A stretch of DNA of 64,000 nucleotides. It comes from Escherichia phage RB16. Every line of letters begins with the position of its first letter. Within the stretch, counting starts at the first letter, position 1. The notes under the pieces were generated by a model. The model did not search any database. It worked only from the letters and a program-made list of their open reading frames with translations, and had not been told where the DNA came from. The DNA is taken from the sequence record NC_014467.1, one strand, 5' to 3'. This document shows, in pieces, positions 6,489 through 34,545 of the stretch. A program made the position numbers and the translations under genes.

Positions 6489-7000
6489 CAGTGGTGACTC
6501 TTTGATGTATGTTCAAGGTTGCGGAAAATGTTACCATGTTCCAGTTGGGTTCCAATCGGGCCGCACTCGTCAGAGTACGTAAACTCGTAGATAAACACGC
6601 CGTTTTGATTCCCGTACTTCGTGTTGTATTCTTCATACAGCCACATCTTGATCAGAGCGTCTTTCTCTTCGGTTTCTAAATCGTACCAATCCCGACCATC
6701 ATATGCAAGTGCAATTTGCGGATTTGAACGATAACGGGTTTCCGCGCTGTCTTCGGTTTCCCAATCATAGCGCTTATCATCGTAATACGATTCAAAACTA
6801 TTACCCATATGACCGCCTAAGTCACGGTGAACGTGTTGAACAACTTCTTCGGATGTCAGCGGGGGATTGTAGTAACCGCAATTAGGGGAACATTCACCCA
6901 TCATTTCACGAAGGTTGTTGATATCAGTCGGATCTTTCGGGAACCGGACGATGAAACTACTTGATGAACTATTGCTTACAAAACCAGAACGAATTTTCAT
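6488..7000 (-). CDS. hypothetical protein, paralog family A (shared N-terminus MKIRSGFVSNSSSSSFI)
   Basis: first 17 aa identical to ORF 2610-3077; Cys motif ECSPNCGYYN. Confidence 0.55.
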   Translation of the reverse strand: MKIRSGFVSNSSSSSFIVRFPKDPTDINNLREMMGECSPNCGYYNPPLTSEEVVQHVHRDLGGHMGNSFESYYDDKRYDWETEDSAETRYRSNPQIALAYDGRDWYDLETEEKDALIKMWLYEEYNTKYGNQNGVFIYEFTYSDECGPIGTQLEHGNIFRNLEHTSKSHH

Positions 7001-7242
7001 TTCAACGCCTCGAATTTGATTTCTTTCAGTGATTGTGTGTGATTATAACAAACCACTCCGCGATGTGTTTTCTTTCCGGTAAATCCGTCGAATATGGTGA
7101 CATAATAATGATAGCAACAATCATCAAGAGGATTGTTTCTGATATAGTCTAACACAACGTCTAACGATACGGTAGAGCATACACAGTCAGATTCATTGTC
7201 ACGACCATCATAGAAATCTTTTTCAATACTATAAATTTTCAC
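6997..7242 (-). CDS. hypothetical protein (81 aa)
   Basis: ORF track; ATGA-type overlap with neighbour. Confidence 0.4.
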   Translation of the reverse strand: MKIYSIEKDFYDGRDNESDCVCSTVSLDVVLDYIRNNPLDDCCYHYYVTIFDGFTGKKTHRGVVCYNHTQSLKEIKFEALK

Positions 7243-7481
7243 GATATTTTGCCTTTTCTTTCAGATTTGAGAACGATGTTACTGTAAGGATCCTTTGCTA
7301 CCAGTTCCCACAGGTCGCCAGGATGTTCCCCGCTACGGTAAACAGATGAACGAATGATTTCGTTAAACTTGATCAATGCTTCGTCGATGTCATCATAGCC
7401 ACGTTTCAGAGGCTTACGGTTGCGACGGATGAAGAACATTTCTTTGGTCTTCTCCCAGCGTTCAGAGTTTTTAACCTTCAT
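7239..7481 (-). CDS. hypothetical protein (80 aa)
   Basis: ORF track. Confidence 0.4.
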   Translation of the reverse strand: MKVKNSERWEKTKEMFFIRRNRKPLKRGYDDIDEALIKFNEIIRSSVYRSGEHPGDLWELVAKDPYSNIVLKSERKGKIS

Positions 7482-7770
7482 TGACCTGCCTCATGTTAGC
7501 CATGATTTCTTCAAAAGTCACGGGAATTTCTTTATACTGTTGTGATTCTTCATCCCATACATCGCGATACCCGTATGTTGAACTTTTTGCAATACGTTTT
7601 TCATTTTCCCAAACATCAATAGTAATGTTGTCACCAAGATAAGGAAAATTGTCAACTTTGTTTAAAGCGTCAATACAATTTTGTAACGATTCAGAAACAT
7701 GAACAATTTCAGTGAATTCATAATCGGCACTATAAGAAGAAACGTAAATCATAAAACCCGCACCCACCAA
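7471..7770 (-). CDS. hypothetical protein (99 aa)
   Basis: ORF track. Confidence 0.4.
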   Translation of the reverse strand: MVGAGFMIYVSSYSADYEFTEIVHVSESLQNCIDALNKVDNFPYLGDNITIDVWENEKRIAKSSTYGYRDVWDEESQQYKEIPVTFEEIMANMRQVNEG

Positions 7771-8758: not shown

Positions 8759-9013
8759 TCAAAAAATATGCGTAAGGTTTCCGGCGTTGTTCGGGTATTC
8801 CACGTAATCGCCACGGAATATGTTTAGATCGGAATCGAACTTAAATCCTTGACCCCTGACATCCTCATGACGGGAAATATAAGAACATCCGTACTTTTGT
8901 AGATCTTCCATGTACATTTCAGTGATGCGTTTTGCTTTGTCCATTCCCCGACCTTCAAATCGGGAACGGCGATAATGTTCCAGCAAAAACGCATATAACT
9001 TTTCGTATGTCAC
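8759..9013 (-). CDS. hypothetical protein (84 aa)
   Basis: ORF track. Confidence 0.4.
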   Translation of the reverse strand: MTYEKLYAFLLEHYRRSRFEGRGMDKAKRITEMYMEDLQKYGCSYISRHEDVRGQGFKFDSDLNIFRGDYVEYPNNAGNLTHIF

Positions 9014-9918
9014 AGAACTTTCCTTATCTGTTTGGCTATTGCCTCGATAACTGGCACGGAAACGGAGTTACCCGCTTGCTTGTATGCTTGTTTTTTACTC
9101 GATGGAATAATAAACGAATCTGGGAAGCCTTGCAAGCGAAAACATTCACGCGGGGTTAATCGTCGTGGGTTCTTCCCGTCCTGCAACACCAGACATTGAA
9201 CGCCGTCCTTGTAATATTGCGCGGTGATGGTTCCTGTGTGCGTAGAATCGGCTGTGACGGCCTGATAACCAAAGCCCTTACCGTTTGCCTTATTTCGTTC
9301 CTTACGCTCTCTAAAGCCTTTCCACGCGTTATCTGATAGAGTGTACGAATCATCAGCATCTTCGAGGATATCACCTACGCGCGTAGGGGTACGCGGGGGA
9401 ACCGGAAACGAAAAGAATACATCATCCAGGAAGCAGACAATGAACACGCGTTCACGTCGCTGGGGTAGTCCGAAATCTTTTGTATTCAGTCGCTGATAGA
9501 ATACGTTGTATCCTTCGGCCTCAAGAAGCCCGTAAATCGTTTTAAACGTCTTTCCCTTGTCATGGGTTAGCAATTCAGGCACGTTCTCAAAGAACAGCAC
9601 ACGGGGCTTTTTAGCGCGTATGATGCGGAGGATTTCAAAGAACACCGTACCGCGAGCATCATCAAATCCCAGTTTCAATCCGGCTTTACTGAATGCCTGA
9701 CACGGGAACCCAGCCAACAGGATATCGTGATCGGGTACTTTGTTTTCATCAATGGCAAACAGATCACCCTGTAGGTTATCGTCGCCCCAGTTTTCAATAT
9801 AGGTTTGCTGTGCGTGTTTGTCGATCTCAGACGTTAAAAGGCATTCGACCCCGCCGAATGCATTATCAAATCCAAATCGAACTCCACCAACGCCAGCGCA
9901 GAGGTCAATTATTTTCAT
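9010..9918 (-). CDS. DNA (cytosine-5)-methyltransferase, Dcm-like
   Basis: C5-MTase motifs in order: LCAGVGG (I), FPCQAFS (IV, catalytic Cys), ENV (VI), QRRERVF (VIII), GNSV (X). Confidence 0.85.
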   Translation of the reverse strand: MKIIDLCAGVGGVRFGFDNAFGGVECLLTSEIDKHAQQTYIENWGDDNLQGDLFAIDENKVPDHDILLAGFPCQAFSKAGLKLGFDDARGTVFFEILRIIRAKKPRVLFFENVPELLTHDKGKTFKTIYGLLEAEGYNVFYQRLNTKDFGLPQRRERVFIVCFLDDVFFSFPVPPRTPTRVGDILEDADDSYTLSDNAWKGFRERKERNKANGKGFGYQAVTADSTHTGTITAQYYKDGVQCLVLQDGKNPRRLTPRECFRLQGFPDSFIIPSSKKQAYKQAGNSVSVPVIEAIAKQIRKVL

Positions 9919-10447: not shown

Positions 10448-11430
10448 TTGTAATACCTCATAACATGATCTTTGTACACGAGTTCAATGAAGTTATCCCA
10501 GAACTCGCGATCGACTTCTTTCGGATAGGTAGAGATTGCAGCCAGGCGTTCAACTTCACCCATCACTTCCTCCAGTTTTTCCTGTACTTCGGCAAACGGG
10601 ACATTACCAGCTTTAACCGATTTCAACAGGTCACTCTCAGGAAGAGGATAAACGATATCACCGTGCTTGTAAATCTGTACCAACTGCATACCGCCGCGCA
10701 ATGCGTGACTTAATGCTTTCCAATCGATCCCATTGTTGGCTTCTGCTTGTCGTGCGCGTTCGCCATATTCATCCCAGAGCTTATACACGGATTTCTTCAT
10801 TTCCGCTACGGTGATTGTGAACTGGAATTTACGACCCAGAACTTCGTAGAAATTCTGCATACCACCTTTTTCGCTATAATGCAAAATAGAACGACAGAAT
10901 TCATTGGTCGGTAGTTGGTCTTTGATGTCGCCAACTTTGGTATTAACCAACGATGAAGCGTTTTCATCGTAATGTGCATTATCGGTGTCTTGCAACACGT
11001 CATACACTTCACGCAATGCAGCCAGGCGTGAACCCTTAACGCCATATTTCGCGGCTTGCTTACGAACATAACCGAACAGACCAGTTAACTCCGTGGTGTA
11101 GAAACGCCAGCGGTTAGCGCGGATATACTGCCAGATTTCAGAGTTAGCGATCAGCTTGCTATCATCAGCATGAAGCATATCGAGCGCTACGGTATCACCA
11201 TCACACGCAAGGCTGATGAACTTAGGCAGACTATACAACTGACGGTCTACGTCATCAACGGTGTTTTTAGAGTTCTTATCGCCCGTGCTCGTGTCGATGG
11301 TCTTTGGGGCTTTACCCAGTAAGATATCGCGTGGATGCGGGAGAAAGATCCCTTTATAATCTTTGTCGCTTGTCGGGGTGTTCAGTCCGTACAAAAAACT
11401 TCCAAACACCATTTCAACTACGGTTTTCAT
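10444..11430 (-). CDS. nucleotidyltransferase-fold (Pol-beta superfamily) protein, about 328 aa
   Basis: N-terminal VEMVFGSFLYGLNTPTSDKDYKGIF fits hG[GS]x9-13DhD NTase signature; start placed at MKTVVEMVFGSF. Confidence 0.5.
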   Translation of the reverse strand: MKTVVEMVFGSFLYGLNTPTSDKDYKGIFLPHPRDILLGKAPKTIDTSTGDKNSKNTVDDVDRQLYSLPKFISLACDGDTVALDMLHADDSKLIANSEIWQYIRANRWRFYTTELTGLFGYVRKQAAKYGVKGSRLAALREVYDVLQDTDNAHYDENASSLVNTKVGDIKDQLPTNEFCRSILHYSEKGGMQNFYEVLGRKFQFTITVAEMKKSVYKLWDEYGERARQAEANNGIDWKALSHALRGGMQLVQIYKHGDIVYPLPESDLLKSVKAGNVPFAEVQEKLEEVMGEVERLAAISTYPKEVDREFWDNFIELVYKDHVMRYYK

Positions 11431-11947
11431 AAAATTCTCCAAATAATTCTTTCGCTTTCGCTTCGTATACTACACTAGCTTCTTCTGGCGTGGCAAACCT
11501 ACCCAAAAACATATCTTTGCGGTTATGTTTGATTTTAGCTATCCATTTATCACGAGCATTGTCGAAATAGACCCCCTTATAGCCAGATTTATTGGTTTTC
11601 GGAGTTTTTGCTTTCATCGTGTTCTGCTGTTGCGTTACTTCCTGTAGGTTATCTTTGCCATTACCGTTCCCGACCCCGCGTTTATGGTCAACGATAGCGG
11701 GAAGATACCCGTTAGCAACATAGAAAACAATTCGATGAACATAGTACGACTTGCCGTTATATCCTATTGCAGTGTATCCAAATGAATTCGTACTACCCGC
11801 AATACTTCCTACTGTAGCCCTACTACCCCTGTGAACTTTCCAATAACACAACCCTGTGTCAACATCAACCCGAAGAATTTCTAACAATGAATCTATTTCG
11901 CTGCGTTCATCTTCTAGCGTTCTTTTCCACCGTCCGTGGCATTTCAT
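11414..11947 (-). CDS. HNH homing endonuclease with AP2-type DNA-binding domain
   Basis: YVHRIVFYVANGYLP...VDHKRG...DNLQ (HNH_3-like) followed by SGYKGVYF...KWIAKI...LGRF...EEA (AP2-like). Confidence 0.7.
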   Translation of the reverse strand: MKCHGRWKRTLEDERSEIDSLLEILRVDVDTGLCYWKVHRGSRATVGSIAGSTNSFGYTAIGYNGKSYYVHRIVFYVANGYLPAIVDHKRGVGNGNGKDNLQEVTQQQNTMKAKTPKTNKSGYKGVYFDNARDKWIAKIKHNRKDMFLGRFATPEEASVVYEAKAKELFGEFYENRS

Positions 11948-13774: not shown

Positions 13775-14836
13775 TCAAGCAACCCCCGTAAAGGCGTTTA
13801 CTATCTGGAAATGATCATCGAAGAATTCCCCTTGTCGTTGTACGACCTCATGTAAGGGCATCCAGAACGCCTCTGCTGCATCGTCAGCGCCTCCCATAAT
13901 GCGGGGCAGACTTCCATCATTGTTAGGTTCTAACTTGATGTATTGCGCTACAGTCGGTTTTGAGAAGTGTACGGAACGCTTCGGATGATCAAACAACATC
14001 GAATTGCGAATTGAACCACGGATAACCTTTTCAGGAACCTTGATCCGAACCTCTTCGAGCAATTCACGGATCGCACAATCCAGGAATGTTTCGTTTGCGT
14101 TTTTGTGTCCACCTGGCAGGGCCAACGCGCCTTTACCCGGTGCAAACTTACGACGAATTACCAGAAGGTGATTGTTACACACAACCACGCTATCACCCGT
14201 ACAACAGTTTAACGCGTCGGGGTATGGGTACGCTTTGAACTTCTCCAGTTCATCTTCCCATTTCTCGAACTCGTAGTACAAGCGCCAGAACGTATCGGTC
14301 ATCATCCATCCGTTAAGAGAACCCACGACAGCAGCAGGAACATAACGGGCGATCTTCTCGTCCCATCCATTTTTATGTAAAAATATGGTTGGACGCAGGT
14401 CGGTAGCAGATAAATCTTTGCCGTCAACCTTAACCGGATCAACCGGAACATGAGTCCATCCGAACGCTTTAAGCCAGTACGAATCAGCATCTTTTTCGTA
14501 ACCGTAGATCGCGATGTTATCGCCTTTAGTTTCGTCGATTGCTGTACGAACAGAGGTTTTCCATTTTTCTTCATTGTAAAGGTAATCTGGAATCGGTTTG
14601 AATTGCACACGGGACACATCTTCATATTTGAACTCAGACAGTAACCAGCTTGTAATCATACGTTCCCGTTCGGTTGCTGTTAGCGGGTTTAAAACGTTAG
14701 GGTAAGCATAAGCGGAACCCAGGAGGATATAAACGGCCTTCGACTCTTCAAGTGCTTTACGCACCATTGCCGCATGACCATTATGGAAGGGTTGGAATCT
14801 GCCAATTACGACAGCTTTATCAAATTTGTATTTCAT
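13775..14836 (-). CDS. natV: bifunctional NMN adenylyltransferase / Nudix hydrolase (NatV-like)
   Basis: N-terminal GRFQPFHNGH (HxGH nucleotidyltransferase motif) and C-terminal Nudix box GGHKNANETFLDCAIRELLEEVRIKV; start set at MKYKFDKAVVIGRF. Confidence 0.8.
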   Translation of the reverse strand: MKYKFDKAVVIGRFQPFHNGHAAMVRKALEESKAVYILLGSAYAYPNVLNPLTATERERMITSWLLSEFKYEDVSRVQFKPIPDYLYNEEKWKTSVRTAIDETKGDNIAIYGYEKDADSYWLKAFGWTHVPVDPVKVDGKDLSATDLRPTIFLHKNGWDEKIARYVPAAVVGSLNGWMMTDTFWRLYYEFEKWEDELEKFKAYPYPDALNCCTGDSVVVCNNHLLVIRRKFAPGKGALALPGGHKNANETFLDCAIRELLEEVRIKVPEKVIRGSIRNSMLFDHPKRSVHFSKPTVAQYIKLEPNNDGSLPRIMGGADDAAEAFWMPLHEVVQRQGEFFDDHFQIVNAFTGVA

Positions 14837-14861
14837 AACGTGCTCCACGTTTAAAGGGTAA

Positions 14862-14960
14862 TCATAAAACAGACGCAATAATCAATACACCAAGCAAACC
14901 GCCAATAAAGCCGAAGAATAGCGAAATGAAGATAGATAAGATGATCTGTTTTATGTTCAT
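14862..14960 (-). CDS. possible single-pass membrane micropeptide (32 aa)
   Basis: hand translation MNIKQIILSIFISLFFGFIGGLLGVLIIASVL; lies between SPFH gene and natV. Confidence 0.25.
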   Translation of the reverse strand: MNIKQIILSIFISLFFGFIGGLLGVLIIASVL

Positions 14961-26110: not shown

Positions 26111-26406
26111 ATCATCTTACCATATTTGAGAGTATTCATATAACCGATGATGTATTCAACAACAGCATCGCGTTCTTCTTCACATTCATATCCAGCCCAC
26201 GTTATCGACTGATTATGTGCTAAATGAAACTTAATCGCAGGTTTCCATGTTTTGTTAAGACAAGGAATTTTAGCATCAGTCTCAATCCATGAAACGTGCT
26301 CTACGTTAACAGGATAGTTAATACATTCCACCTCTGCATTACTATTGTATACAAAATGGTCTGCATATAAACGTTTATACGATTTAATTTCTGGTACAAT
26401 AATCAT
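26107..26406 (-). CDS. hypothetical protein (99 aa)
   Basis: ORF track. Confidence 0.4.
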   Translation of the reverse strand: MIIVPEIKSYKRLYADHFVYNSNAEVECINYPVNVEHVSWIETDAKIPCLNKTWKPAIKFHLAHNQSITWAGYECEEERDAVVEYIIGYMNTLKYGKMI

Positions 26407-27557
26407 TTTAACTCCACTGCATAAACATCGGTTTCAGTGGCTTTGTGTACGCGCATATCTTTACCGCATACTGCATAAGCCGGACAGTTACGACAACCGT
26501 TATGATCCTTATTACCGATCAGTTCATTACGGAACTGTTTGGTTTTCGGATGTTCCCAGATATCCTTAATGAAATCGTTCGCTTCCAGGACGTTCAAGCC
26601 TTCTTCCCAACCACCTTCAACCCAGCGTTCGGTAAACGAACAAGGGAAGAACTCGCCTTTCTCGTTGATGTACGAGCTAAACATGGTTGCTTCACAATCT
26701 TCGGCATACTGTTTGTACTGTTCGAAGTTTGGGTGTCCTTCCATCGCTTCAACGAAAGCGGGGGCTGAACAGCTATCGAAACCAAATCCTACACCAGAAT
26801 CAAGGCAATATTCAACAAGTTTTTTGTATTGTTCGCGGGTAACAGTATCCCAGTTCTTACCGCGTCCCTTTTGTTTCAGCCCCAGGAACACAATCGCATT
26901 GACTTGTTTCAGTCGCGGATCATTGCGCACAGCATCAACAACGTTAAACGCATCATCATAGGTTTTAGAGCTAACCATGAAGTGAAGGTTAATTTGCTGT
27001 TGTCCTGCTTCTGCCAGGTTCGCTACCGAGTCGAAAGCGACATCGAAGCCAGCATGTTTATAAACCGATACCGCAACAGCCCCAGCAACAGCCGCTAAAC
27101 GCGCTGCAACGTCTTTTGATACATCGGCAATGGTAAGGTTCGGCACAATGCCTTTAGAACGCGCATAGGCCATCATATCGAACATATCAGGGTTTGTTTG
27201 TCCCTGTGCATCAGCACCGAGGGCGCATTGAGTCAACCAGGGCATTTTATCAATGATAGATTTGAATGATTCCAGATCCATATTGTAGCCGTTAGGGTTG
27301 TTGGACTTGTAACAGAAACCGCACAGCTTACCAGCGGGGCCATTACATTTCGTGGTGATCTCGATATCGAGAATTTCAGGGAAAGGCGCGTATGTCGGAT
27401 CGCTTGCAAAGGTTGTACCCCAACGAGAGAATTCGCCAGTGTCAACATTGAAATTGTAGTTGTACCACTTAGAGCGAGCAAAGCGCATATTACCCTGCTG
27501 GTAAATCATCAGCGAAGGGGCTTTCATTACAGTTTGTGCGCGGTCAATAATATCCAT
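26403..27557 (-). CDS. putative Fe-S / radical-SAM-like enzyme with atypical Cys cluster (about 384 aa)
   Basis: LDIEITTKCNGPAGKLCGFCY (Cx7Cx2C preceded by TxxCN as in radical SAM cores) plus C-terminal CRNCPAYAVCG cluster; start set at MDIIDRAQ. Confidence 0.4.
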   Translation of the reverse strand: MDIIDRAQTVMKAPSLMIYQQGNMRFARSKWYNYNFNVDTGEFSRWGTTFASDPTYAPFPEILDIEITTKCNGPAGKLCGFCYKSNNPNGYNMDLESFKSIIDKMPWLTQCALGADAQGQTNPDMFDMMAYARSKGIVPNLTIADVSKDVAARLAAVAGAVAVSVYKHAGFDVAFDSVANLAEAGQQQINLHFMVSSKTYDDAFNVVDAVRNDPRLKQVNAIVFLGLKQKGRGKNWDTVTREQYKKLVEYCLDSGVGFGFDSCSAPAFVEAMEGHPNFEQYKQYAEDCEATMFSSYINEKGEFFPCSFTERWVEGGWEEGLNVLEANDFIKDIWEHPKTKQFRNELIGNKDHNGCRNCPAYAVCGKDMRVHKATETDVYAVELK

Positions 27558-27567
27558 GATATAGTTC

Positions 27568-27774
27568 TCAAAATTTAACGTGGGATTGGAAAACAGCACG
27601 AGCAAGGTTTTCGCTATCGAACGGGATTGATGTTCCCTGGTCTTTGCTGTCAATGTTAACGCGCCAGAACTCACTAGACCCGTTTTTGGTGGAGTAATGC
27701 ATCAGCGTTACCGTCTTATTCTTTTCCAGGAAGATGCGTTTATCAATCTCTGTTTTTATTTCGTGCTGCATCAT
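27568..27774 (-). CDS. hypothetical protein (68 aa)
   Basis: ORF track. Confidence 0.4.
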   Translation of the reverse strand: MMQHEIKTEIDKRIFLEKNKTVTLMHYSTKNGSSEFWRVNIDSKDQGTSIPFDSENLARAVFQSHVKF

Positions 27775-29901: not shown

Positions 29902-30290
29902 AATTCATATTGTGAGCGAAGGATAGCGTAAAGGCTACCGATATGGATTGTGTCTACCGGACACTGGAAAAGATCCCCGCGCATCATGTTAAACTCGATA
30001 TCGTTACGTTCAACATAGTTACCGATCATTGATGTCCAACCCATCACCAGGTTGTAACCATCTTCTGATAACCCATAAGCCAGCCTAACCATGATACAAC
30101 GCTTATCAGCCAGTTCTACGCGCATATGGGTACTGGTATGAGTGACCTTGTTCGGGAATCTGCGAAACATTTTAGTAAGGAGTTTGGCGGTTTCAATATT
30201 GAACGCCAGTTCTTGATCCTTACTGGTCTGGTTATCATGACGACGATCCAGATATTTCTTCATTTTCGGATTCAGATTCACATGTTGCAT
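29886..30290 (-). CDS. hypothetical protein (134 aa)
   Basis: ORF track. Confidence 0.45.
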   Translation of the reverse strand: MQHVNLNPKMKKYLDRRHDNQTSKDQELAFNIETAKLLTKMFRRFPNKVTHTSTHMRVELADKRCIMVRLAYGLSEDGYNLVMGWTSMIGNYVERNDIEFNMMRGDLFQCPVDTIHIGSLYAILRSQYELWDMK

Positions 30291-30472
30291 AATATATCCC
30301 TCACAGGTTTATAACGTTCTTTTCCAGTGCCGTTGCATGAACTGCATTTTGGCGATCCGTAGTTATCATATCGCCCAGACCCATTACATGCAACACATTT
30401 CCGTAATTTACAGCCATACACGAACCGATTATTACATGCGGTTCGTGCTGCCTTGCGCTCATGGAAGTTCAT
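30278..30472 (-). CDS. small zinc-finger protein (CxxCxGxG repeats)
   Basis: CVACNGSG and CSSCNGTG repeats; ATGA overlap with next gene. Confidence 0.4.
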   Translation of the reverse strand: MNFHERKAARTACNNRFVYGCKLRKCVACNGSGRYDNYGSPKCSSCNGTGKERYKPVRDILCNM

Positions 30473-30672
30473 ACTTTGTTGTACACCTGAACAACCCACA
30501 TTTCGATATTTGGTGAGTAAGTAACGTTCACCATCGGCATAGTGCGGTATTTGTAAGCGGCTTTGTACGCGTCAAGTTCAGTCGGAACACAGAAAGAGAA
30601 ACCGTCGTCATAACGTTCTGCGTTAGAAACTTCACAACCAACTACAGCAGCAATATTTTTGTTCATGTTCAT
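30469..30672 (-). CDS. hypothetical protein (67 aa)
   Basis: ORF track; preceded by promoter cassette. Confidence 0.45.
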   Translation of the reverse strand: MNMNKNIAAVVGCEVSNAERYDDGFSFCVPTELDAYKAAYKYRTMPMVNVTYSPNIEMWVVQVYNKV

Positions 30673-30708
30673 GATGTTTTCCTTTCTGTGTTTCGTTTCG
30701 ATGTGTGT

Positions 30709-30745
30709 AATATAACAAAGCCCTTACAGTAATACAAGGGCTTTT
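30709..30745 (-). promoter_or_regulatory. terminator-hairpin/promoter cassette (-35 TTGTAT, 17-nt spacer, -10 TATATT)
   Basis: minus strand AAAAAGCCCTTGTATTACTGTAAGGGCTTTG TTATATT ACACACATCGAAACGAAAC. Confidence 0.5.
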
Positions 30746-30750
30746 TCAAT

Positions 30751-31059
30751 TTATTCGAATTTTTTTGGCAACTGGTCTACAAGTGTTTGAGTTTGATGAA
30801 GTTCTTCACTCAATTTATCACGATATTGAACCAGTTCGCGGGTTCGTGATGCGGAATAGCTAATGATTTTATCCGCGTTAGCCATGTAACCGTAACCAGC
30901 ACACGCGATTTCCAGTTTTGCGTTATCGCCGTTAGGTACGCGGATATGAGCATACGCCAGCAAGTTTTTAACCGCTTGTAACAGTTCATGATCTTCTTTA
31001 CCGATGATAAACTGGTTTGGTTCTACTGAATCAACATTCAGTTCTTCGTCTTTGTTCAT
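30751..31059 (-). CDS. hypothetical protein (102 aa)
   Basis: ORF track. Confidence 0.45.
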   Translation of the reverse strand: MNKDEELNVDSVEPNQFIIGKEDHELLQAVKNLLAYAHIRVPNGDNAKLEIACAGYGYMANADKIISYSASRTRELVQYRDKLSEELHQTQTLVDQLPKKFE

Positions 31060-31589
31060 TTTGCAGCCTTATACATTTCAATTACGCGTTTCATGTGCTC
31101 TTGTGATTGAGGCACACCAGCGAAATTCAATTTAATGAAGAATTCAAGACGATCCTTTTTATTACATTCATCCAACCCCAGGGCAGGTAATGACAGGTTT
31201 TCAAAGGCGCGTTGTTCGTGTCGCTGCATATCGTCCCAGAACAGACGGGAACCATCCGACATAGGAATCCCTATCTCACCTTCATAAACTTTGATAATCG
31301 TCGTCAGGCGTTGCTTGCCGTCGATTACTTCGACCCAGTGAGATTCGTTAAACTCGCTATCAACAGCGATCGCGATAATACCGCAAGGGAAACCCGTGAT
31401 CAACGTGGTCAGGAATTCATCTTGTTCTTTCTGCGTCCACACATAGGGGCGCTGATATGATGGATTCAGATCCAGATCCTTATTTTTCCACCAGTGGATA
31501 TAACTTCCAACCATGATCGCATGTTCACGACTTCTGAAAGTTATCCGTTCACGAATTCGGTTACGGGCTGGGATATCATCTTTAGACAT
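31056..31589 (-). CDS. DUF262 / ParB-like nuclease-domain protein
   Basis: PSYQRPYVW...VIDGKQRLTT matches the YQRxxxW / DGQQR signature of the ParB/Srx-fold DUF262 domain. Confidence 0.5.
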   Translation of the reverse strand: MSKDDIPARNRIRERITFRSREHAIMVGSYIHWWKNKDLDLNPSYQRPYVWTQKEQDEFLTTLITGFPCGIIAIAVDSEFNESHWVEVIDGKQRLTTIIKVYEGEIGIPMSDGSRLFWDDMQRHEQRAFENLSLPALGLDECNKKDRLEFFIKLNFAGVPQSQEHMKRVIEMYKAAK

Positions 31590-31914: not shown

Positions 31915-32175
31915 TTATTCCTTCACATGTTGTAACAGGAAGTCTAACAGATTTCCTTCCGCTTGCATAGCATAAACTTTATTAAGTTTTGCGATGTTTT
32001 GAAAATCAGAGGTTTCTGGGTATTCCCAATTACCATCATCAGAAACAATAGCACCCACTGATAAACCAGTTTCGGGGTTGCGAGTCAACGCCAGCCCCAG
32101 CGGGTGCAATATTTCTTTGTTGATTTTCCAGATCAGCCCCATATCGGACAGGGTGTTGAAATCAACAATTTTCAT
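31915..32175 (-). CDS. hypothetical protein (about 86 aa)
   Basis: ORF 31915-32262 trimmed to MKIVDFNT. Confidence 0.4.
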   Translation of the reverse strand: MKIVDFNTLSDMGLIWKINKEILHPLGLALTRNPETGLSVGAIVSDDGNWEYPETSDFQNIAKLNKVYAMQAEGNLLDFLLQHVKE

Positions 32176-32176
32176 G

Positions 32177-32563
32177 TTATGCCTTTGGGACAACACCGAA
32201 TGCCAGAAGACCCATACGATGATCGTTATCTGCCTCTTCACGGAAGAAATAGTATTGTTCATCGGAAATATCGATTACGGTGATACCCTCTTTCAGATAC
32301 GGCAACAGATATAACGGGATCAGCATCAAATCAGATTCACTGCTCCATTTACGGAAACCCAGATTTTCCATTTCTTCCCGCGTCAAATCATTAGGATCTA
32401 CCGGAAAGAAATTAGGCGATTTCATCAGGCGACCAGGAAGGTCACGAATATTGCTGATTGCGAATTCCGTTCCCCATGAAGTGTATTCAATAGGTTCGGC
32501 GGCACGGGTTGCGGTAGCAACGAGAATCATTTGGCACAGTTGAAAAGTATTTGGATTGCTCAT
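32177..32563 (-). CDS. hypothetical protein (128 aa)
   Basis: ORF track. Confidence 0.45.
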   Translation of the reverse strand: MSNPNTFQLCQMILVATATRAAEPIEYTSWGTEFAISNIRDLPGRLMKSPNFFPVDPNDLTREEMENLGFRKWSSESDLMLIPLYLLPYLKEGITVIDISDEQYYFFREEADNDHRMGLLAFGVVPKA

Positions 32564-32973
32564 GATATAGATCCCACAAGTTTAGTCAGAAGGTGTCCCA
32601 TAGTCTTACGCGCATGATCGCGGATCTGGCTATACGGAACATATTTGAAGTCATCCATTTCAGTAATGGTTCGACCGTTTTTAACGAAGGTTGAAGCGCA
32701 AACACATTTTTCTGCTTCGGGGTAATTATTACCCACATATACGAATAACACAAGCTCTTTTTTACTCGTATAATCAATCAGACCCAGGCTCAACAGTTCG
32801 TGTTGTTCAACTACAACGCCCGTTTCCTCGAAGCATTCACGGATAGCAGCATTGATCGGGGATTCGCCTTTTTCGATATGCCCCTTTGGGATGTCCCAAT
32901 GAGGCGTTTCGGTTGCGTGACCCATTAAAACGCTGCCGTTATTCAGAAAGAGAATACCAGCAGACCGTTCCAT
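32560..32973 (-). CDS. nudE: Nudix hydrolase (NudE-like)
   Basis: Nudix box GHIEKGESPINAAIRECFEETGV (Gx5Ex7REUxEExGU). Confidence 0.8.
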   Translation of the reverse strand: MERSAGILFLNNGSVLMGHATETPHWDIPKGHIEKGESPINAAIRECFEETGVVVEQHELLSLGLIDYTSKKELVLFVYVGNNYPEAEKCVCASTFVKNGRTITEMDDFKYVPYSQIRDHARKTMGHLLTKLVGSIS

Positions 32974-34247: not shown

Positions 34248-34336
34248 AACTCCCTCCTTTGTCTACACCAGGTATTTTACCAGAAAATAGACTACTGTCA
34301 ACAACAAAGTTTTATCAACCCACTTATCACCAGTCA

Positions 34337-34477: not shown

Positions 34478-34504
34478 GATTACCTCCTTTGTTTCGACAC
34501 CCCT

Positions 34505-34545
34505 AATATAACAAAAGCCCTTGCACGAATGCAAGGGCTTTTTCA
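34505..34545 (-). promoter_or_regulatory. terminator-hairpin/promoter cassette (-35 TTGCAT in 9-bp stem, 18-nt spacer, -10 TATATT)
   Basis: minus strand AAAAAGCCCTTGCATTCGTGCAAGGGCTTTTGT TATATT. Confidence 0.5.

Follow-up and report, generated by a model that had tools for sequence, protein, structure and literature searches.

A minimal DUF262 protein encoded by Escherichia phage RB16: a phage clade built around an intact nucleotide pocket

DUF262 is the nucleoside triphosphate (NTP) hydrolase and sensor module common to at least six anti-phage systems, namely GmrSD, BrxU, SspE/DndI, Menshen, Dazbog and PD-T4-2. What, then, would such a module do in a phage genome, and on its own? This question is raised by a small gene of Escherichia phage RB16, which lies in the stretch of 64,000 nucleotides of record NC_014467.1 that we analysed as a whole (hereafter the window):

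31056..31589, minus strand: coding sequence for 177 amino acids, an ATG-to-stop open reading frame (ORF); minimal stand-alone DUF262 (ParB/Srx-fold) protein, orthologue of Lw1_gp173.

A sequence-only reading of the window had recognised the domain and had suggested that a copy lacking its usual nuclease partner could be a decoy or dominant-negative inhibitor of host defence, or a nucleotide-dependent nuclease. Here, we report that the domain and fold assignments are solid, that the protein belongs to a phage-restricted clade with no recurrent partner gene, and that its most constrained part is the nucleotide pocket, and we weigh the functions that these results suggest.

Domain, fold and nucleotide pocket

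The window derives from a Pseudotevenvirus (Lw1/RB43-like), a genus of T4-like myoviruses; its 88-93% nucleotide identity to Pseudotevenvirus genomes bears out the statement that the gene is phage-encoded, and over the 5 kb that surround the gene the identity is 92.6% with Lw1 and 88% with Cronobacter phage GAP161. The Lw1 orthologue, Lw1_gp173, is 97.7% identical to the RB16 protein and is annotated as a "hypothetical protein". In comparisons with the orthologues of Lw1 and Klebsiella phage phi1_146015, the ratio of non-synonymous to synonymous divergence (dN/dS) is 0.025-0.084, at a dS of 0.38-0.74. Because of this low ratio and the presence of orthologues in 266 GenBank phage records, we regard the gene as real and functional. 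The predicted product is near-neutral, with a pI of 6.2 and a net charge of about -2.

The two peptides on which the sequence-only reading had based its assignment to DUF262 (ParB/Srx-like, GmrS-type) are both found in the 177-aa ORF, PSYQRPYVW at residues 43-51 and VIDGKQRLTT at residues 88-97, and a profile search confirms the assignment. The sole Pfam match is PF03235 (GmrSD_N, formerly DUF262), which scores 73.7 bits (E 2.8e-20) against a gathering cutoff of 33.2 bits, spans residues 40-160 and covers profile positions 12-187 of 199; no match to PF02195 or to a helix-turn-helix (HTH) domain was found in Pfam, and no NCBIfam model matches the protein. Among defence profiles, the best PADLOC matches are the DUF262 sensors NsnA (4.3e-16, residues 19-171) and PD-T4-2_A (2.6e-12). 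A single-sequence search against solved structures returned no direct match, and a family profile was needed: the profile built from an alignment of 28 homologues (alignment A1) matched, among PDB sequences, BrxU (7p9k) with an E-value of 2e-7, DndI with 5e-5 and SspE with 1e-3. The AlphaFold2 model of the 177-aa protein is a confident single domain (pLDDT 88.6, pTM 0.83); 22 of the top 23 Foldseek matches obtained with this model are ParB/Srx proteins, and the predicted ParB/Srx fold is closest to pNOB8 ParB-N, BrxU and SspE. As the motifs align residue by residue to those of BrxU, DndI and SspE and the model is confident, the domain and fold assignments are solid.

DUF262 is defined by the three motifs QRxxxW, DGxQR and FxxxN (PMC12065111), all of which are present in the RB16 protein, the third (FIKLNFAG) having been absent from the sequence-only reading. 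Together with the positional equivalent of a fourth element of BrxU, they are located as follows:

31437..31454, minus strand: motif I, QRPYVW (residues 46-51), which fits the DUF262 pattern QRxxxW and aligns to QREFVW of BrxU.
31401..31418, minus strand: EFLTTL (residues 58-63), which in the profile alignment to 7p9k occupies the place of RLFDS, the nucleotide-binding/dimer-switch motif of BrxU.
31308..31322, minus strand: motif II, DGKQR (residues 90-94), the DGxQR motif and predicted gamma-phosphate-positioning loop; aligns to DGQQR of BrxU, DndI and SspE.
31116..31139, minus strand: motif III, FIKLNFAG (residues 151-158), the FxxxN motif; extended in the clade to LNFAGVPQSxEH.

Conservation within the family peaks at the residues of the nucleotide pocket. 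Throughout the 28 homologues of A1, Q46, R47, D90, G91, K92, Q93 and R94 are invariant, and V50, W51, L95, F151, N155 and G158 are at least 90% conserved. In a larger set of 180 family proteins, QR is present in 172, DGxQR in 174 and motif III in 163; the lysine of DGKQR, where GmrSD has DGQQR, is a signature of the clade (160/180). In BrxU, D98, Q100, Q101 and R102 position the gamma-phosphate, and the Q101A and R102A variants bind NTP without hydrolysing it; R38 and S42, in the RLFDS motif, have roles in nucleotide binding and the dimer switch (PMC8565348). By profile alignment, R94 of the phage protein is the equivalent of SspE R100. At the position of RLFDS, just the F-L-x-(S/T)-L core is retained in EFLTTL. 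Profile alignments also show that the 100-200 residues lying between motifs II and III in the defence proteins are missing from the phage protein.

A phage-restricted clade and its gene neighbourhoods

The best family match is to phrog_1583, a phage family of unknown function (E 2e-59, 202 bits, residues 5-176). The RB16 protein covers positions 4-178 of the 417-position profile, the length of which is due to N-terminally extended members of the family. Two size classes exist, a short one of 150-200 aa and an N-terminally extended one of 250-350 aa. From the start of motif III to the C-terminus, the median distance is 28 residues in the 180 proteins, and in the RB16 protein it is 27 residues. 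A split or truncated gene can therefore be excluded, as the PHROG length comes from the N-extended members and the members examined stop just past motif III. No ParBDB helical DNA-binding domain and no DUF1524 was found among the family members examined. The sole fusion partner seen is a small beta-barrel (Tudor/SH3/KOW-type), which is fused in about half of the clade (the long forms) and is visible by structure prediction only; Pfam searches of the N-terminal extensions returned just PF03235.

Representative searches gave 3,270 clusters (at 50% identity) at E<=1e-3 and 252 at E<=1e-10. In addition to the 266 GenBank phage records, a relative is encoded on 412 IMG/VR contigs. The carriers include Pseudotevenvirus, KP15/KP27-like Klebsiella phages, RB49/JSE-like Krischvirus and Erwinia phage Hena1 (Vequintavirinae), as well as P22-like Lederbergvirus, Sphingomonas phage PAU and Bacteroides phages. 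The context was viral in every genomic locus examined, and the clade is phage-restricted, patchily distributed and located in accessory or early regions. In a P22-like phage, for example, the member lies in the moron-rich early-left region beside abc1/abc2, and distant metagenomic members adjoin genes for DnaB, PolA, an exonuclease, NrdD, gp2, PhoH and a TnsA-like protein.

The carrier T4-like genera have been reported to have no genes for hydroxymethylcytosine (hmC) (PMC12115623). In Lw1, uvsX adjoins gene 43, and the segA/beta-gt/42/imm block that lies between them in T4 is missing; in a tblastn search that covered the window and roughly 114 kb of the 176-kb Lw1 genome, T4 gp42 found thymidylate synthase (Td) only, and beta-gt had no match. 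The family occurs in 52 "Escherichia" phage records, and T-even phages accounted for 0 of 40 evenly sampled rows. The family thus appears to be absent from the hmC phages targeted by GmrSD.

The absence of a DUF1524/HNH partner, which the sequence-only reading had noted, also holds: the protein has one Pfam domain, none of the ten flanking ORFs tested contains a Pfam nuclease domain, and no window ORF of at least 80 aa contains the DUF1524 signature DH[IVLM]xP. Moreover, a comparison of 72 viral loci, sorted into 18 lineages by >=60% identity of their DUF262 proteins, found no family of neighbouring genes (within 4 kb, BLASTP E<1e-5) that was common to more than two lineages. Pairwise BLASTP likewise found the neighbours of the gene unrelated among RB16, RB49, Hena1 and UPF_BP1 and, together with the clustering of the 72 loci, this excludes a conserved upstream or downstream partner. 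No ssp or dnd genes, and no NsnB/NsnC-type domains (inPIN plus nuclease), were found among the DUF262 gene neighbours. DNA methyltransferase genes lie near the DUF262 gene in RB49 (1951-2667), in Hena1 (1406-2089) and in two further loci (L023 and L062). ParB-methylase fusions are known. An association with methyltransferases is nevertheless unlikely, because such genes lie within 4 kb in only 4 of the 18 lineages, belong to three unrelated families and are about 22 kb away in Lw1, which is roughly what chance would give.

In RB16, the DUF262 gene is the last but one of some eleven small genes, often overlapping one another, that form a block on the minus strand; this block has the gene 1/3/57B cluster on one side and the frd.1/radical-SAM region on the other and contains a gene for the Nudix hydrolase NudE. 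The elements that delimit this block, a promoter-like site within it and the ORF that follows the DUF262 gene are as follows:

34503..34542, minus strand: upstream PeSL-like cassette at the start of the block, a hairpin with a 13-bp stem followed by TGTTATATTA (extended -10-like); terminator-like match.
34274..34301, minus strand: sigma-70-like promoter, TTGACA-16-TAAAAT with TG, 11/12 matches (consensus match only), inside the block and upstream of the DUF262 gene.
30751..31059, minus strand: downstream ORF of 102 aa, phrog_15764, whose start overlaps the stop of the DUF262 gene (ATGA).
30705..30744, minus strand: downstream PeSL-like cassette at the end of the block, a hairpin with a 12-bp stem plus TGTTATATTA, 7 nt past the ORF that follows the DUF262 gene.

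The two block-bounding elements look like PeSL cassettes, which are terminator/early-promoter cassettes of RB49-type and other T4-like phages that mark hyperplastic regions of shufflable, adaptive accessory genes (PMC4122927) and mediate modular shuffling in T4-like phages (PMC2839356, PMC4122927). The two are near-identical, each consisting of a GC-rich hairpin (TTGAAAAAGCCCTTG / AAAGCCCTTG...CAAGGGCTTT) directly followed by TGTTATATTA and then by a ribosome-binding site and an ATG. Their core, GCCCTT-N10-AAGGGC, has two sites in the 64-kb window, both in these cassettes, where none is expected. Two sigma-70-like promoters with 11/12 matches lie upstream of the DUF262 gene, in a window whose total of promoter-like sites is not above that of shuffled controls. 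On the basis of the minus-strand block, the overlapping start and stop codons, the sigma-70-like promoters and the PeSL-like cassettes, we infer that the DUF262 gene is expressed early in infection.

The 102-aa downstream ORF is unrelated to the genes found downstream in RB49, Hena1 and UPF_BP1. In Lw1, it is replaced by Lw1_gp172 (Lw1 locus 6531-7490), a protein of 319 aa assigned to phrog_10932 that shares with it just the C-terminal 85-90 residues or so; no Pfam domain was found in either. This difference is an apparent gain or loss of an N-terminal domain in the gene downstream of DUF262 between two phages that are otherwise about 93% identical. As this ORF is unrelated to the DUF262 gene and variable, the idea that it is a split-off remainder of that gene was discarded.

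Several other minus-strand genes of the window were characterised in passing:

30278-30499, minus strand: small neighbour in the block, a 73-aa protein with a zinc-finger-like CxxCxGxG repeat and weak matches, below the cutoffs, to the DnaJ central domain and Anti-TRAP.
31915-32262, minus strand: another small neighbour in the block, a DUF7415 protein (PF24187, 48.5 bits).
32560-32973, minus strand: the NudE Nudix hydrolase of the block, by Lw1 annotation.
26403-27674, minus strand: radical SAM protein, by Lw1 annotation.
13775-14878, minus strand: bifunctional nicotinamide mononucleotide (NMN) adenylyltransferase/Nudix protein, by Lw1 annotation, with a possible role in NAD+ salvage or counter-defence.
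11414-11947, minus strand: 177-aa ORF in which an HNH-type motif (YVHRIV...DHK...N) and then an AP2-like segment (SGYKGVY...W.AKI...GRF...EA) are recognisable by eye.
9010-9918, minus strand: type II-like DNA methyltransferase, by Lw1 annotation.

The ORF at 11414-11947, whose Lw1 counterpart is annotated as a shorter protein of 132 aa, is likely to be a homing endonuclease, judging from these motifs. Considered as a DUF262 paralogue, it proved unrelated, and neither tblastn nor the family hidden Markov model gave a second copy of the DUF262 gene in the window.

Weighing the possible functions

Because the nucleotide-pocket residues are the most conserved, we favour, with moderate confidence, the view that the RB16 protein is an active NTP-binding and probably NTP-hydrolysing switch or enzyme that would gate an interaction in host takeover or conflict, and not a passive decoy. 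By analogy with BrxU and SspE, the NTP would sit in a pocket to which QR (46-47), DGKQR (90-94) and the pair F151/N155 contribute, and the protein would bind, and probably hydrolyse, NTP in the manner of the DUF262 domains of these two proteins, for which the NTPase activity and the roles of the DGQQR residues are known (PMC8565348, PMC10952713). The NTP cycle may gate self-association, or the engagement of a nucleic acid or host protein. The target would most likely be DNA-related, that is, a nucleic acid or a protein of DNA transactions or immunity, because about half of the clade is fused to a beta-barrel and the neighbourhoods elsewhere are rich in replication, recombination and anti-nuclease genes. 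The protein would presumably be synthesised soon after infection, its gene being part of an accessory block, open to shuffling, in a T4-like phage that does not use hmC.

Several points weigh against this proposal. The conservation of the pocket would also be expected if NTP binding served a dominant-negative interaction alone. The protein has a near-neutral charge and no recognisable DNA-binding domain, so that it is not evident how the 177-aa form could bind DNA directly; it also lacks the beta-barrel of its long relatives, and the similarities of that barrel are themselves moderate (Z <=5.4). The early timing is read from the layout of the sequence, and promoter-like sites are overall no more frequent than in shuffled controls. 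Finally, our literature searches yielded no experiment on, and no description of, the phage-encoded solo DUF262 clade.

The decoy or dominant-negative function envisaged by the sequence-only reading would have the solo domain engage host DUF262 defence proteins (GmrSD/BrxU, SspE, Dazbog, Menshen NsnA or PD-T4-2) and poison their oligomeric, NTP-driven cycle. Several results can be read in its favour: the best PADLOC matches are the defence sensors NsnA and PD-T4-2_A, the gene sits in an accessory early block, which is a typical place for counter-defence genes, and the DNA methyltransferases that the phage encodes could expose it to DUF262 systems that sense methylation, such as Dazbog. Heteromeric DUF262 assemblies also exist, as the ECOR17 system requires a nuclease-less GmrS1 together with GmrSD2 (PMC12373910), and BrxU cycles between dimer and monomer via its NTP pocket (PMC8565348). 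However, BrxU dimerises by entwined inter-domain linkers and by a helix that plugs the NTP pocket of the partner (PMC8565348), and the phage protein has neither; it is the catalytic pocket, and not a surface, that is most constrained. The identity to the solved defence DUF262 domains is just 10-17% and the clade is deep and phage-specific, which argues against a recent capture of a host gene, and the occurrence of the family in phages as different, also in their hosts, as the P22-like phages, Vequintavirinae, Sphingomonas PAU and Bacteroides phages speaks against one specific host target. Moreover, as the carrier phages lack hmC genes and hence present no glucosylated hmC (glc-hmC) substrates, GmrSD enzymes specific for glc-hmC are irrelevant to them and an anti-GmrSD role of the RB16 protein is unlikely. 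The conserved pocket, the absent dimerisation elements, the hmC-less carriers and the deep phage clade together weaken the decoy function, which we now consider unlikely. The nuclease that had been suggested beside it, an NTP-regulated nickase or DNase whose ParB/Srx pocket cuts host, competitor or own DNA in replication or recombination, has precedents in the metal-dependent, sequence-nonspecific DNase and nicking activities of Osa and a Bacillus cereus ParB-methylase and in the prediction that solo phage ParB domains are NTP-regulated DNases (PMC5512222); the replication, recombination and anti-RecBCD genes beside family loci in other phages, and the small beta-barrel of a nucleic-acid-binding type, are compatible with it. 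In every characterised DUF262 system, however, DUF262 serves as the NTPase sensor and leaves the cutting to a nuclease domain of another kind (DUF1524, OLD or others), and the near-neutral 177-aa form has no DNA-binding domain and, in its sequence, no separate metal-binding site for a nuclease beside the NTP pocket. A DNase is, in our judgement, distinctly unlikely.

Two further functions appear quite improbable. In GmrSD, SspE, Menshen and Dazbog, sensing is the task of DUF262, and the RB16 protein might accordingly be a phage-borne exclusion or defence sensor that detects the DNA of co-infecting or superinfecting phages or of mobile elements and signals to an effector encoded elsewhere, in the phage or the host. 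The orthologue of Klebsiella phage phi1_146015 is automatically labelled a "DefenseFinder protein", and in temperate P22-like phages the gene lies in a region typical of morons; however, a linked effector was found in 0 of 18 lineages, the window contains no DUF1524 signature, the phage protein lacks ParBDB, the DNA-binding domain of the sensors, and the carriers are mostly strictly lytic. Such a role would therefore be surprising. The other candidate, to which we attach the smallest probability, is a sulfiredoxin-like or serine-kinase-like phosphotransferase that would modify a protein or small molecule at the expense of NTP, or else a hydrolase of the nucleotide pool or of a signal nucleotide that degrades a nucleotide needed by host immunity. 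Degradation of nucleotides in conflicts has been proposed for the ParB superfamily (PMC10853773). This activity would require no nucleic-acid-binding domain, and nucleotide metabolism is represented among the neighbours, by NudE in the block and by the NMN adenylyltransferase/Nudix protein elsewhere in the window. On the other hand, the protein has DGKQR instead of FGGCHR and thus no sulfiredoxin catalytic cysteine, its similarity to kinases is far weaker than that to DUF262 defence domains, and the characterised NTPases of the ParB family are slow switches and not bulk hydrolases.

An active NTP-dependent switch or enzyme thus remains our preferred explanation, and it can be extended into a bolder and rather doubtful proposal: the clade may represent a class of enzymes for counter-defence or host takeover that has so far gone unrecognised in phages, namely minimal and autonomous DUF262 NTPases in which a module of immune sensors has been turned to active use. 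Such an enzyme might cap or occupy, in an NTP-dependent manner, the DNA features or partners needed by Menshen, Dazbog, BrxU-like and Ssp/Dnd sensors, or might hydrolyse the nucleotide that those systems need, and the long form would add a beta-barrel for nucleic-acid targeting.

The coupling of nucleotide hydrolysis to recognition in DUF262 has so far been studied on large multidomain proteins only. A clade of DUF262-only proteins of about 170 aa, with intact motifs and present in hundreds of phage genomes, would offer the smallest natural model for the biochemistry and structure of the domain, and the RB16 protein, being small, well-folded and abundant and having clear point mutants, is a cheap experimental target. 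The clade is also a candidate for a new phage strategy built on the sensor fold of the host, whether in counter-defence, in the manipulation of host DNA or in the control of nucleotide pools or signals; if the protein is just an auxiliary NTPase with no role in conflict, the result would have ordinary annotation value.

Comparison with known DUF262 and ParB/Srx systems

Some orthologues already carry the labels "DUF262 domain-containing protein", "chromosome partitioning protein" and "DefenseFinder protein" in GenBank, and, since some records thus name DUF262, the domain match itself is not new. What is new is the occurrence of a known catalytic module in a different, minimal architecture, used by a virus rather than by its host. 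BrxU (7p9k) and Eco94GmrSD contain a DUF1524 His-Me nuclease, inter-domain linkers and a helical region, none of which is present in the phage protein; furthermore, GmrSD and BrxU are encoded by the host and restrict modified DNA (hmC, glc-hmC and 5-methylcytosine), whereas the RB16 protein is encoded by the phage, outside any host defence island. The SspE and DndI proteins (6jiv, 7drs, 9jfl) are 560-820 aa long, contain a DNA-binding domain in the middle as well as a DUF1524 nickase, and work with Ssp or Dnd modification genes, all of which the phage protein lacks. NsnA of Menshen, protein A of PD-T4-2 and DzbA of Dazbog resemble it in that they too contain DUF262 without DUF1524. NsnA, however, invariably continues into a DNA-binding ParBDB domain at its C-terminus and has NsnB and NsnC as working partners (PMC12065111); the match to NsnA spans profile positions 45-200 of 385, and the phage protein stops about 20 residues past motif III, leaving no room for ParBDB.

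Beyond DUF262, the canonical CTPases ParB, Noc, KorB and PadC differ from the phage protein, which has no GERRxR box, HTH, C-terminal dimerisation domain or ParA partner, and the catalytic cysteine of sulfiredoxin (in the FGGCHR-type motif) is missing, its place being taken by DGKQR. The nearest conceptual precedent is provided by the DdrB-like solo domains, which are likewise phage ParB/Srx proteins that sometimes stand alone, and for which a role early in infection has been predicted, as enzymes that sense or hydrolyse NTP or as DNases under NTP control (PMC5512222). The DdrB-like proteins nevertheless form another clade, typically encoded by late or virion genes and associated with polyvalent injected proteins, whereas the RB16 protein belongs to the DUF262 clade and is encoded in an early accessory block with no link to the virion.

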